In this document: piece by piece, positions 19,542 through 24,842 of the stretch
Position numbering within the stretch: position 1 is the first letter of the stretch
How the letters are laid out: each line of letters begins with the position of its first letter
Origin: Promethearchaeota archaeon
GTDB lineage: Archaea; Asgardarchaeota; Hermodarchaeia; Hermodarchaeales; Hermodarchaeaceae
Direction: 5' to 3'
DNA: 28,689 nt
NCBI GenBank assembly: GCA_048938295.1
Contig: JBHLMI010000023.1
Span: forward strand, 1-28,689
The notes under the pieces: generated by a model
Told to the model about the DNA's origin: nothing
Database searches by the model: none
The model's input: only the letters and a program-made list of their open reading frames with translations
Program-made: the position numbers and the translations under genes

Positions 19542-20918
19542 TTGAAACCAAAGGTCCTAACTGAAAATGAGATTGCTGAAATGCTCACTAATGTCACTGA
19601 GGAGGAAATCGAGGAGTGCAACTCTCACATTCTAACTCCCTTGAAAGAAATGATTCTAGTCAGTGGGACTCCAGGTGGCGCCATGGTGAAGGATCTAAAT
19701 GGGAATGAGTATCTCGATTGTACGAGTCAGGCTTGGACCCTCAATGTCGGTTACGTTAATCCCGATGTCATCTATGCCACCCAATTTCAAGCTGAGCGTC
19801 TCACACATGTCCGATACGGCTACCCAACCATTCCACGTATTAAACTTGTAAATAAGCTCAGCGAAATCGCTCCAGGATCTTTAAAAAAGGTCTCCATCCA
19901 GAATCAAGGAGGTTCTACTGCAATTGAAGCAGCTATGAAGCTGTCAATGATTCACAAACCCGGCGCATCTCTCTTCATCACTCATTGGCTGGGCTATCAC
20001 GGTGCTACCCTCGCTACTATCTCGGCAAGTAACTGGATGCCTAGCCCTCTCATCCGGTTTCCCAATATCGGGCTCCAGCACTTCTTGAAAGCCCCTTACC
20101 CATATTGCTATCGGTGCCGAGGCAATCAAGACCCCGCGGATTGTGATCTCGAATGCCTCCAGTATCTCCAGAATCTAATTATGTATGGAACAAATACGCC
20201 TATAGCGGGACTTATTATTGAGCCCATGCAAGGGCCCGGCGGTCAAGTAATCGCTCCCCAACGATATATAGAAGGCATTCGAAAACTCTGCACAGAAATG
20301 CAAGTAACGCTCATTTTCGATGAATCCCAAACAGCCTTTGGTCGCGTTGGTAAAATGTTTGCCTCAGAAATATACAAAATCACACCTGACATGATGGCAC
20401 TCACAAAGGCGCTTGGGGGTGGACTCCCCATCGGCGCTACCTTAGCTGATGAAAAATACGGTGGCTTCACACCTGCCGAAGAACACAGCACTTTTGGAAG
20501 TAGCCCTCTTATAATGGCAGCGGCGCTCATCAATATTGAAATTATTCAACGCCTAAATCTGCCACGGCGTGCCGAAAAATTAGGAAATCACATTACTAAA
20601 CGTCTTCAAGAACTCCAAAAAACAAGTGATCAGATTGGTGATGTCCGAGGACCTGGCCTTTTCATTGGCGTTGAAATGGTCAAGGATCGAGACACGAAAG
20701 AACCCGCTAATTCCTTGGCTGACGCCATCGTCCGTGAAGGGTTGAAGCGTGGTGTCATCTATGACCTCAGTATGCCATTCATGCGCCATCTGACCTTTCA
20801 ACGAAACGTCGTGAAAATCAAACCTCCTTTGACCATATCCGAAGATCAGGCAGATCGAGCAATTGATGTCTTTGAAGAGTCACTCAAGGCTGCATTGAAA
20901 GACTTGACTATTCTATAG
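19542..20918 (+). CDS. Class III PLP-dependent aminotransferase (GabT/ArgD-like)
   Basis: YLDC, GGSTAIEAAMK, YHGAT, IEPMQG, DESQTAFGRVG, PLP Lys in LTKALGGG, and VRGPGL. GGTGAGG SD upstream of the TTG start. Confidence 0.92.
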   Translation: MKPKVLTENEIAEMLTNVTEEEIEECNSHILTPLKEMILVSGTPGGAMVKDLNGNEYLDCTSQAWTLNVGYVNPDVIYATQFQAERLTHVRYGYPTIPRIKLVNKLSEIAPGSLKKVSIQNQGGSTAIEAAMKLSMIHKPGASLFITHWLGYHGATLATISASNWMPSPLIRFPNIGLQHFLKAPYPYCYRCRGNQDPADCDLECLQYLQNLIMYGTNTPIAGLIIEPMQGPGGQVIAPQRYIEGIRKLCTEMQVTLIFDESQTAFGRVGKMFASEIYKITPDMMALTKALGGGLPIGATLADEKYGGFTPAEEHSTFGSSPLIMAAALINIEIIQRLNLPRRAEKLGNHITKRLQELQKTSDQIGDVRGPGLFIGVEMVKDRDTKEPANSLADAIVREGLKRGVIYDLSMPFMRHLTFQRNVVKIKPPLTISEDQADRAIDVFEESLKAALKDLTIL

Positions 20919-20958
20919 GTAAAAGCCAAGTATTCACTAAGGTCTGCTAGAGGGCTAG

Positions 20959-20974
20959 AGGATTCATGAATCCT
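20959..20974. promoter_or_regulatory. Perfect 16-bp palindrome AGGATTCATGAATCCT
   Basis: Intergenic, between the aminotransferase stop and the promoter of the small gene. Preceded by a tandem GCTAGAGG x2 (20946-20961). Confidence 0.3.
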
Positions 20975-21131
20975 GAAGAGAATTTCTCAATTCGCAGAAA
21001 GTTCAACAGGTACCCCTCGAATTCTTTAGAAATTTAAATCAAAGACAATAACGAGAGAAAGGTATTAAATAAAAGCTAACCGAGTCGAATTTACGTACTC
21101 ATCTGGGGAACGAGTGCACAAGTGACCAGCC

Positions 21132-21374
21132 ATGGCCCGACGGGCAATACCGCGATATCCATGACCCACCTGCGGTTTCTTCATCCAGGAAATAACCGTT
21201 GAAGAAAAAGCAATCCTCAACGCCCCGCGGGTACTCGTACTATTACACGCGACTTGCTCGAATGGCCATCAAAGCACTCTCTTCGTTGACAGAAATTTCC
21301 AGATCCGCGAAGCTGAACCAATCGTCCAAGAGGTTAAATCGAAAAAATCCGCCGTTGATAAGGCAAAGGCTTAG
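21132..21374 (+). CDS. Small 80-aa putative metal-binding protein with in-frame TGA at codon 11 (candidate selenoprotein or nonsense allele)
   Basis: Manual translation: MARRAIPRYP*PTCGFFIQEITVEEKAILNAPRVLVLLHATCSNGHQSTLFVDRNFQIREAEPIVQEVKSKKSAVDKAKA. AGTGA SD-like sequence at 21121-21125 and BRE/TATA-like GAAAGGTATTAAATA at about 21057-21071. Confidence 0.6.
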
Positions 21375-21535
21375 CTTGGTTGAATCTAGGTTGACAATCA
21401 TGATTCAAAATGTCTTCCTCATCACATCCAGCAGAAAACATATCTTGGCAGCGAAAGCGGCTGATTGGACCGATTGATTGATAGGGAGAAAACTAAACCG
21501 AAGCTGTGACAGCCTAGAATCATGAGGTTGCAACT

Positions 21536-22087
21536 GTGATAGGGATACTTAAAATCGTTCTCATAGGTGAAGGCGGAGTGGGAAAAACGAGTCTTCTTAA
21601 ACGGTACACTTGGAACACCTTCGATGAAAATATGAAGCTCACTATTGGTGTTGACTTTGCTGCCAAGAACATACAACAAGGCGGATGGGCTGCTACACTA
21701 CAAATCTGGGATCTCGGAGGGCAAATCCGGTTTCGCGACCTAGCCATCAGTTACTTCAAAGGTGCCCGGCTTGCCATTGCGGTTTTTGACATCTCCAGTC
21801 GTTATACTATGGAACGCTTGAATGATTGGATTACCAGTTTGTATCAAACCGTTCCTAGTTGTCCCTTGATCATTGTTGGTAACAAATGCGATCTAAGGGA
21901 TACCCTCGGTGCCACTAGACCCTTGGTCACACTTCAGGAAGGAATCGAATATGCAGCTCAGTACAATGCCCCCTTCATCGAAGCATCAGCCAAAGATGGA
22001 CAAGGTGTAGACGACGTCTTTGGAGCGGTCACCCAAATCCTTTCTGAAAAATTCCCAACACGAGAAGCAACCGGCATGGCATTCTAG
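21536..22087 (+). CDS. Rab-like small GTPase
   Basis: GEGGVGKTS, TIGVDF, WDLGGQ, NKCD and EASAK. GAGGT SD. No prenylation motif. Confidence 0.92.
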   Translation: MIGILKIVLIGEGGVGKTSLLKRYTWNTFDENMKLTIGVDFAAKNIQQGGWAATLQIWDLGGQIRFRDLAISYFKGARLAIAVFDISSRYTMERLNDWITSLYQTVPSCPLIIVGNKCDLRDTLGATRPLVTLQEGIEYAAQYNAPFIEASAKDGQGVDDVFGAVTQILSEKFPTREATGMAF

Positions 22088-22289
22088 ACTGGCAGTCATC
22101 TGTTCTAAAAAGGTTCTAAGAAGTACTAATTCCTGATAGCGCTTGTATTATACAGTTGACTGTTTCACCTGTAGTTAGTAAATGTGACAAGTATATCCGA
22201 CATATTTGATAACTTTCTCTTCTTATTTGACAACCATATGATGGAAGTTGCAAAAATATAAAGCGCCAGGAGAGTGAATTGATGGAGAA

Positions 22290-24842
22290 ATGGTGGTGAC
22301 CACCATCGCAAAAGCCAAGCAACCCAAAGAAGAAAAACCACGAATCGGCGTATTCGTCTGCCAGTGTGGACGCAACATCGCTGGCGTTATCGACTGCCAT
22401 GCTCTTGCTGAAGGAGCAGCAAAATTAGATGGCGTCGTGGCAACCAAGGTTAACAGGTTTACCTGCGCTGATCCTGGTCAAGAAGAAATCAAACGCATCG
22501 TCAAGGAAGAAAAGCTAGACCGTGTCGTGGTCGCAGCTTGTTCACCCCGCATGCACGAACCCACCTTCCGACGCTGCACAGAAGATGCCGGGCTAAATCA
22601 ATTCTTCTTTGAAATGGCAAATATCCGCGATCAAGGCACCTGGTGTCACGCAAGCGATCCCGAAGGTTGTCAAGTAAAAGCTGCTGACCTCATCGCCAGT
22701 GCCGTAGCCAAGGCCCACCACCTCGAACCGCTAGAAGTTCTAAAGGTTCCTGTCACCCACACTACGCTAGTCATCGGGGGAGGCGTCTCCGGTATCCACG
22801 CTGCCCTCGACATTGCTGATGCTGGCTACAAAGTGTACCTCGTAGAAAGATCACCCACCGTTGGCGGCATCATGGCACTCCTCGATAAATGCTTCCCAAC
22901 TTTGGACTGTTCAATTTGCATCTTGGGTCCGAAGATGGCGGAAGTGGCTCGTCACCCCAACATTGAACTCATTACTAATGCTGAAGTGACTAAAGTAGAA
23001 GGTTTTGTGGGGAACTTCAAAGTCCAAGTAATACAACGACCCCGTTATGTAGATATTGACAAATGCAATAGCTGTGGCGATTGCCAAAAAGTTTGCCCCG
23101 TAGTTGTACCAAATAACTTTGATGCGAATTTAAGCTGGCGTCATGCAATTTACATCCCGTATCCCCAAGCTGTGCCAGCAGCCTATTTGATTGACCCGGA
23201 TCACTGTCTTGGGTTGAGCCCGAATGGGTGCATGATGTGCTATGAAGCCTGTAACAAAGCAGGACAAGAAGCCATCATCCCTGATGACACTGAAAAAATC
23301 CGAGAACTAGACATCGGCACCATCATCGTGGCTACCGGTTGCGAGCCCTATGATCCTTCACCTATCACCGAATACGGTTATGGCGTCTATCCCAACGTCA
23401 TCACTGCCATTGAGCTTGAACGCCTCATCAATGCTGCGGGACCAACTGAAGGCAAAGTCATTCGCCCCTCTGACCAAGCAAAGCCTCATAGCTTTGCTTT
23501 CATTCAATGCGTCGGAAGTCGAGACGCGCGTTACAATATCTACTGTTCTGGCTTCTGCTGCATGTACACAATTAAAAACGCCCTCCTCCTCCATGAGAAA
23601 TATCCGGATGCTGATATCACCATCTACTACATGGATATTCGTACCAACTTCAAAGATTATGAGGAATTCTACCAACGCGCTCGCCGGGCGGGGATCCGCT
23701 TCCAGCAAGGCCGCCCTGCAAATATTACAGAAGATCACCAAACGCGCAATCTCTTCGTGCAAGCGGAGGACATGGCCACTGGGAAATTCACCAAACGAGA
23801 ATATGAAATGGTTATCCTTAGCACGGCGGCAGTTCCAAGCAAAGGCACCGAAGACCTCGCCCGTGTCCTAAATGTACCTCTTGGGCCCTCAGGCTTCTAC
23901 ATGGAAGCTCATCCCAAACTCAAACCTGTTGATGCCGCTACAGAAGGCGTCTTCTTCTGTGGGTCTGCCCAAGGTCCCAAGGATATCCCTGCTAGTGTCG
24001 CCCAAGGCAGCGCCGCGGCATCCCGGGCTTTTCGTATCATCACCCAGGATGAATGGGAAATCGAACCTATTGTGGCAGTTGTCAACCCGGAACTCTGCCG
24101 TAGCGCCACCGGTAAGTGCGGCATTTGTGTCTCTCGTTGTGCCTACGGAGCAATTTATGCTGAACCCGGAAAAGCGGCCTTCGTTACTCCTGCAAAATGT
24201 CACGGATGTGGAACCTGTGTTGCTGAGTGTCCAGCAAATGCGATTACTCAGATGCACTTCACTGATGCCCAGATTATGGATCAAGTTCGTGCTCTATTGA
24301 AGGAGAATCCTGAAGACAAAATTCTTGCCATGTTATGTAACTGGTGCAGTTACGCTGGGGCGGATTTAGCGGGAATCAGTCGGTACAACTACCCTACCAA
24401 TGTCCGAGGAATTCGTGTGATGTGTTCAGGGCGGATGTCGGAGCAGTTCATTCTCGAGGCGTTCCGTTTGGGTGCCGGTATGGTACTCATGTCTGGGTGC
24501 CGACTCACTGAAACAGGCAGTGACTGCCACTACATCAGTGGTAACGTTTGGGCAGAGAAGCGAGCGAAACGTATGTCTGCCTACCTAGACCGGATTGGTA
24601 TGGATCCCCGCCGTTTCCGATTGGAATGGGTGTCGGCTGCGGAAGGCGATAAATGGGCGGCTGTAACGACTGAAATGGCAGAACAGCTCAAAGAGATGGG
24701 TCGTGATTTCATAATTGAAGAGAATAAGCGGGTCCTACCTGAGGTTGAGTCGCGACTCCAGAAGCTATTGAAAAAGGAAACACCTGCTGCTAAAAAGAAG
24801 GCAAAGGCAGAACCGAAGACGGCTAAGGCGAAGGTGAAGTGA
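22290..24842 (+). CDS. hdrA: Heterodisulfide reductase subunit A fused to a C-terminal MvhD-like [2Fe-2S] domain
   Basis: RIGVFVCQCG, AACSPRMHE, GGGVSG (FAD), DCSICILGPKM, CVGSRD and ferredoxin CxxCxxCxxxCP motifs. The MvhD part has LCNWCSYAGAD, RVMCSGR and DCHY. Confidence 0.93.
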   Translation: MVVTTIAKAKQPKEEKPRIGVFVCQCGRNIAGVIDCHALAEGAAKLDGVVATKVNRFTCADPGQEEIKRIVKEEKLDRVVVAACSPRMHEPTFRRCTEDAGLNQFFFEMANIRDQGTWCHASDPEGCQVKAADLIASAVAKAHHLEPLEVLKVPVTHTTLVIGGGVSGIHAALDIADAGYKVYLVERSPTVGGIMALLDKCFPTLDCSICILGPKMAEVARHPNIELITNAEVTKVEGFVGNFKVQVIQRPRYVDIDKCNSCGDCQKVCPVVVPNNFDANLSWRHAIYIPYPQAVPAAYLIDPDHCLGLSPNGCMMCYEACNKAGQEAIIPDDTEKIRELDIGTIIVATGCEPYDPSPITEYGYGVYPNVITAIELERLINAAGPTEGKVIRPSDQAKPHSFAFIQCVGSRDARYNIYCSGFCCMYTIKNALLLHEKYPDADITIYYMDIRTNFKDYEEFYQRARRAGIRFQQGRPANITEDHQTRNLFVQAEDMATGKFTKREYEMVILSTAAVPSKGTEDLARVLNVPLGPSGFYMEAHPKLKPVDAATEGVFFCGSAQGPKDIPASVAQGSAAASRAFRIITQDEWEIEPIVAVVNPELCRSATGKCGICVSRCAYGAIYAEPGKAAFVTPAKCHGCGTCVAECPANAITQMHFTDAQIMDQVRALLKENPEDKILAMLCNWCSYAGADLAGISRYNYPTNVRGIRVMCSGRMSEQFILEAFRLGAGMVLMSGCRLTETGSDCHYISGNVWAEKRAKRMSAYLDRIGMDPRRFRLEWVSAAEGDKWAAVTTEMAEQLKEMGRDFIIEENKRVLPEVESRLQKLLKKETPAAKKKAKAEPKTAKAKVK

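Follow-up and report, generated by a model that had tools for sequence, protein, structure and literature searches.

The selenocysteine (Sec) trait occurs in several Asgard clades, and the UxxC-type selenoproteins described there, Prx-like and others, have an in-frame TGA where a CxxC-type motif would have its first Cys, and are missed by ORF callers (Huang, Xiao & Zhang 2024, PMC11227280). An earlier note on the DNA analysed here, a stretch of 28,689 nucleotides from a Promethearchaeota archaeon that we refer to as the window, proposed that positions 21132-21374 hide a new selenoprotein of this kind, with a pseudogene or a sequencing error as fallbacks. The frame indeed has its TGA at the first Cys of such a motif, lies in an Asgard genome and was missed by ORF calling. 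In contrast to the Asgard UxxC-type selenoproteins, however, it belongs to a genome and genus in which we find no Sec machinery, no SECIS element was found at the locus, its orthologs keep Cys even in Sec-using lineages, and its motif is a predicted zinc knuckle, not a redox centre. We consider it roughly 85% probable that a small zinc-ribbon gene, part of an eroding operon, has become a nonsense-mutated relic at 21132-21374. The relic itself is ordinary and not a new selenoprotein; more useful is the unnamed, rare four-gene operon to which it leads.

Codon-by-codon reading of the window confirms the frame as first described. On the + strand, it opens with ATG at 21132, reads YP-TGA-PTCG across the TGA at 21162-21164 (codon 11), continues through CSNGH and LFVDRNFQIRE, and closes with TAG at 21372-21374 (codon 81), giving 80 codons. 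These three are the only ATG, GTG, TTG or stop codons in frame, so that nothing later than the TGA could serve as a start, and the 69 codons that follow the TGA are still open. With Cys placed at codon 11, the translation contains a CPTCG knuckle, a second ligand pair (C42...H46) and then LFVDRNFQIRE. The 92-aa ORF listed at 21199-21477 (+) is spurious, an out-of-frame read that runs from the zinc-ribbon relic into the remnant of a longin gene. Upstream, a TATA-like element (about 21055-21076) and the leader that follows it (together 21055-21131, +) are conserved in five species, namely the window genome (G000), its sister species G001, the metagenome contig L027, G009 and G004, which bears out the TATA-like signal seen by eye. 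The proposed Shine-Dalgarno-like signal, GGGGAACGA (21105-21113), is also conserved, but it is located 19-27 nt upstream of the ATG. The conserved element and leader are probably the operon promoter, now driving the GTPase gene described below.

The relic aligns over its full length with intact Asgard genes of 80-91 aa. A six-frame search recovered homologs in 13 of 60 relatives: three species of the same genus match at 71-77% identity, and members from four other Asgard families at 27-54%. The metagenome contig L027 matches at 78%. By tblastn, full-length homologs reach 71-78% in the genus (E 1e-35 to 1e-43) and 35-54% in other Asgard families. The small Asgard-type family suspected earlier is thus real, rare and unnamed, with about 85 aa and a CPxC...CxxGH pattern. 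Among 1.84 billion cluster representatives, a profile of the family returned only 34 clusters at E <= 0.001, and the protein matches no Pfam family. The AF2 model has a pLDDT of 82, with residues 1-63 confident at about 90, and resembles only uncharacterised archaeal AFDB entries (TM 0.6-0.7). Against the PDB, Foldseek gives no match at E <= 0.001 and VIA-align a best Z of 4.0-4.1, which is in the noise range, so that there is no clear PDB relative. The ligand pattern and the model together suggest that the family binds zinc. In the window relic, the four metal-ligand codons are not all intact, the first being the stop. A second copy in G039 (L023:1498-1968, G039:C1:91138) continues beyond the zinc-ribbon domain into a fused C-terminal extension that holds another Cys/His cluster.

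The codon-11 column sets the window apart from the rest of the family. Every other homolog available at the DNA level (17 distinct sequences; L010-L019, L022, L023, L027 and L041-L045) has TGC or TGT there, with the exception of the nearest sister species, G001, which has AGC (Ser) together with a Pro12His change. Tabulated across the Asgard homologs, TGA is therefore restricted to this one organism. Six profile matches appeared N-terminally short of the knuckle, which raised the possibility of further hidden TGA codons; in the four that were checked (P0012, P0014, P0022 and P0024), the cause is a mis-called TTG, GTG or upstream ATG start, and the upstream DNA reads C-P-x-C with TGY codons. 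Public gene calls of the family often begin too late in this way, dropping the CPxC knuckle (L041-L045, upstream of position 1501). Of the 24 one-step nonsense changes possible in the zinc-ribbon ORF, 3 fall on Cys-ligand codons, so that a stop at such a cysteine should cause no surprise. TGA is a normal stop in the window, where it ends 9 of 25 long ORFs. The first zinc-ligand codon would have gone from TGC or TGT to TGA in a single step.

The 3′ end of the frame is altered as well. The earlier note had remarked in passing that the terminal TAG might be a mutated Trp codon, and this is correct: in intact homologs, the column is the conserved Trp of a GWLGxI tail, encoded by TGG. G001 and L027 have TGA in its place and the window has TAG, after which come the decayed remains of the tail, CTT GGT TGA ATC, and the ancestral stop, TAG (21372-21389, +; G009 and G004 read GWLGNI and GWLGQI before their stops). 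The TAG reflects either one old truncation followed by a stop-to-stop change, or two separate hits. The C-terminal ..DKAKxW.... tail is accordingly gone in the window; it is also missing in G001, in L027 and in a paralog subfamily of the sister genus, the last of which indicates that tail loss need not be lethal to function. In one member of that subfamily (L013:1501-1737, in G018), an in-frame TAG lies close to the C terminus, either another lesion or an earlier stop. The zinc-ribbon and longin-fold proteins share a similar end, ..KK.SA.DKA..W... (L029:2700-2755 and L029:3090-3156; L011:2088-2135), with 56% identity over 16 residues by tblastn (E 0.22), and from this resemblance the common tail might be a shared docking peptide.

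The intact form of the locus survives in two species of the genus, G004 (L029) and G009. There, the order is aminotransferase, zinc ribbon (85 aa), a protein of 129-139 aa, a 473-aa protein, a Ras-like GTPase (183 aa; Pfam Ras, 3e-42) and HdrA. The ancestral operon comprises the genes for the zinc ribbon, a longin-fold protein, a polytopic membrane protein and the Ras-like GTPase, intact at L029:2501-5170 and eroded at 21132-22087 of the window. The protein of about 130 aa models as a longin fold, with 43 Foldseek matches in the PDB at E <= 0.001 that include zeta-COP, AP sigma/mu, Mon1-Ccz1 and LAMTOR, and the 473-aa protein, which matches no Pfam family, contains at least a dozen hydrophobic segments. 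The order zinc ribbon, longin, membrane protein recurs in distant Asgard lineages across several families, often with the Ras-like GTPase adjoining. The membrane gene was found in seven of the genomes whose zinc-ribbon gene retains the Trp tail; among genomes without a zinc-ribbon gene, it was seen only as a broken remnant, in G014. A complex prediction for the longin, GTPase and zinc-ribbon proteins of the intact operon scored 0.00, which weighs neither for nor against an assembly. At their N termini, 13 larger proteins of the window genome (175-1399 aa; for example G000:C32:114296-114577) also match the first 80-100 residues of the longin-fold protein; judged by these sequence matches, such an N-terminal domain is widespread in that genome.

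The window has lost both middle genes to deletion, except for 78 nt of remnants at 21400-21477 (+). The first 53 nt of these (21400-21452) are the 5′ end of the longin-fold gene (MIQNVFLITSS...), which aligns to the N terminus of the 129-139 aa gene next to the zinc ribbon in intact operons; the rest (21453-21477) is the 3′ end of the membrane-protein gene, reading ..DWTD before its stop against ..GWLDRLLDR, and G001, G011, G013 and G014 have the same remnant just ahead of their GTPase gene. The Ras-like small GTPase gene (21536-22087, +; Pfam Ras 5.8e-44) is the surviving last gene of the operon, identified also by synteny. Species of the genus display all stages of this loss: in G001 and L027 the longin remnant is longer, frameshifted and contains a TAA, and the membrane-gene tail is kept as well, in G011, G013 and G014 only the membrane-gene tail is left upstream of the GTPase gene, and G002 and G006 have about 180 nt, with nothing recognisable, between aminotransferase and GTPase. 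On our preferred reading, the zinc-ribbon gene would once have been the first of the four genes, and in this organism, with the two middle genes deleted, the GTPase gene alone is retained under strong constraint. This loss of its partners may have relaxed selection on the zinc-ribbon gene. The TGA at codon 11 would end translation after 10 residues; with no in-frame start codon beyond it, the rest of the frame would not be rescued, and the relic presumably makes no full-length protein.

Substitution patterns agree with such a relaxation. Pairwise dN/dS of the zinc ribbon is 0.36 between the window genome and G001, against 0.09 for the pair of intact genes in G009 and G004; among comparison genes, the GTPase has 0.10 (window versus G001) and the aminotransferase 0.04. 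The value of 0.36 is still below 1, suggesting that the lesion is recent or that some constraint is left. With changes polarised by outgroups, and on counts that are small throughout, 9 changes on the window branch are nonsynonymous and 5 synonymous (omega about 0.56; not distinguishable from neutral at p=0.22); the G001 branch has 6 and 1, again not different from neutral, whereas L027 with its stem has 12 and 14 and is under purifying selection (p=0.001). L027 keeps an intact zinc-ribbon gene under this selection despite its broken longin gene, which means that partner loss alone does not render the gene useless. At codon 35 (21234-21236; L009), the conserved Pro of PRVPVL has become Leu (CTC) in the window genome and G001 but is Pro in L027; since L027 is nonetheless closer to G001 by dS, the shared Leu points to a parallel change or to recombination.

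The possible residual constraint also bears on the alternative that fares best, a leaky stop, in which near-cognate tRNAs (Cys or Trp) read through the UGA, yielding small amounts of the complete protein from a gene that still works. In bacteria and eukaryotes, a C directly after UGA makes the stop leaky, as may hold in archaea by analogy, and the open codons downstream, the pairwise dN/dS below 1 and the conserved promoter and leader could all be read in this sense. However, 69 open codons are what a young lesion should leave, the downstream GTPase gene explains why the promoter is conserved, and the partner genes and the tail Trp are already lost; the window branch is indistinguishable from neutral, and no positive evidence speaks for readthrough. 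We consider a leaky but functional gene unlikely. Quite improbable, too, is a scenario in which UGA-11 is decoded, by a near-cognate Cys or Trp tRNA or by a Sec system encoded in the unassembled 8% of the genome, and the resulting full-length zinc ribbon works with the retained Ras-like GTPase.

The second fallback of the earlier note was an error of sequencing or assembly, to which may be added a minority strain variant that entered the consensus by chance; in either case, the population allele would be TGC or TGT. In favour of this, the window genome is metagenome-assembled (91.6% complete). Two Logan contigs (runs SRR30758826 and SRR30758825) that carry the neighbouring GTPase gene are, however, identical to window positions 21060-21540 at 481 of 481 bases, both stops included. 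They derive from two sequencing runs and from an assembler different from that of the MAG, so that neither stop is an assembly error, and the sequence context contains no homopolymer. Because these runs may belong to the same study as the MAG, the match establishes reproducibility as opposed to independent populations. An error or a chance variant is accordingly a slim prospect. The pseudogene that the earlier note held in reserve is what the evidence supports, with a reproducible premature stop where orthologs are intact, a decaying operon and a raised dN/dS.

Decoding of UGA-11 as Sec, which would make the frame a UxxC...CxxxH selenoprotein, draws its appeal from the exact alignment of the TGA with the conserved Cys of a CxxC motif and from the use of Sec in some Asgard lineages. 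The latter point holds: SepSecS scored above cut-off in 18 of 60 other Asgard relatives, in keeping with the published survey (PMC11227280), and the search thus works in the phylum. Applied to the window genome, the same kind of search found no Sec component over its cut-off. For tRNA-Sec, the best hit reached 30 bits against a cut-off of 47, with matches 71-73 nt long; SepSecS had no match; PSTK had only a 20-bit P-loop match; SelD had only four paralogs, scoring 52-70 bits where the cut-off is 125; and SelB had only other translation GTPases. ARAGORN reported no tRNA with anticodon TCA in this genome, which is weak evidence by itself because the program recovers just 15-20 tRNAs in so intron-rich a genome. 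Across the genus, SepSecS was found in 0 of 15 genomes. These machinery results for genome and genus agree with PMC11227280. HdrA provides a further comparison: the paralogs of several SepSecS-positive relatives contain 1-4 in-frame TGA codons, and none was seen in the HdrA of the genus, that of the window included, among the matches listed. A SepSecS-like fragment at a contig edge in the sister genus (G016:C25:2-133; 44 bits, 44 residues) is a separate observation, by which that genus may still have the Sec trait.

The family and the 3′ region argue in the same direction. In the SepSecS-positive lineages G029, G039, G049 and G052, where a Sec codon could be read, the zinc-ribbon homologs carry TGC or TGT at codon 11. 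Consistent with the earlier failure to see a convincing SECIS by eye, no Rfam family, the general SECIS models included, matches 20900-22400 at E up to 10; the 3′ region at 21375-21535 folds no better than shuffled sequence (z -0.39) and is made of deleted-gene remnants. The motif is moreover a predicted structural zinc knuckle and not a redox CxxC. The new UxxC selenoprotein that headed the earlier note, with its TGA in this organism only, Cys in Sec-using lineages, no machinery found in genome or genus and no SECIS found at the locus, is therefore exceedingly improbable. That splicing removes the stop as part of a short archaeal mRNA intron of the bulge-helix-bulge type has a negligible chance, as the codon-by-codon alignment with four close homologs is colinear, with no inserted bases and the TGA exactly on the Cys codon.

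Returning to the relic reading, one false selenoprotein candidate is removed, and the case has a general side: a Cys-rich gene breaks most commonly by TGA on a Cys codon, and such a codon is no evidence of Sec where the machinery is not found. Compared with ordinary nonsense pseudogenes in decaying operons, the locus has the same one-step premature stop, the same deleted or frameshifted neighbours, the same raised dN/dS and the same full loss in sister species; there is no essential difference, except that the family that has decayed is itself unnamed and rare. Among small archaeal zinc-ribbon proteins, such as LysW and the Trm112-like and CpXC-named AFDB clusters, the family finds its counterpart in a CPxC knuckle, a second ligand pair and a small beta structure, but the structural likeness is weak (Z 4.0-4.1 in the PDB and TM 0.6-0.7 in the AFDB) and unaccompanied by a Pfam match.

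The closest known parallel to the operon as a whole may lie in the modules that pair a Ras-like GTPase with a longin-fold or roadblock protein, namely Mon1-Ccz1 with Rab7, Ragulator with Rag, the small subunits of AP and COPI with Arf, and MglB with MglA. The relic leads to a rare, unnamed Asgard operon of four genes, lost stepwise within one Hermodarchaeota-type genus, that is a candidate for a membrane-associated, eukaryote-like GTPase module. The longin-fold protein of the intact operon resembles zeta-COP, AP sigma/mu, Mon1-Ccz1 and LAMTOR at Foldseek E values of 1e-5 to 1e-3 and TM of 0.45-0.6, a likeness at the level of predicted structure. Unlike those modules, the intact Asgard operon adds an 85-aa zinc ribbon and a 473-aa polytopic membrane protein to the pair, and in the window the GTPase is the sole survivor.
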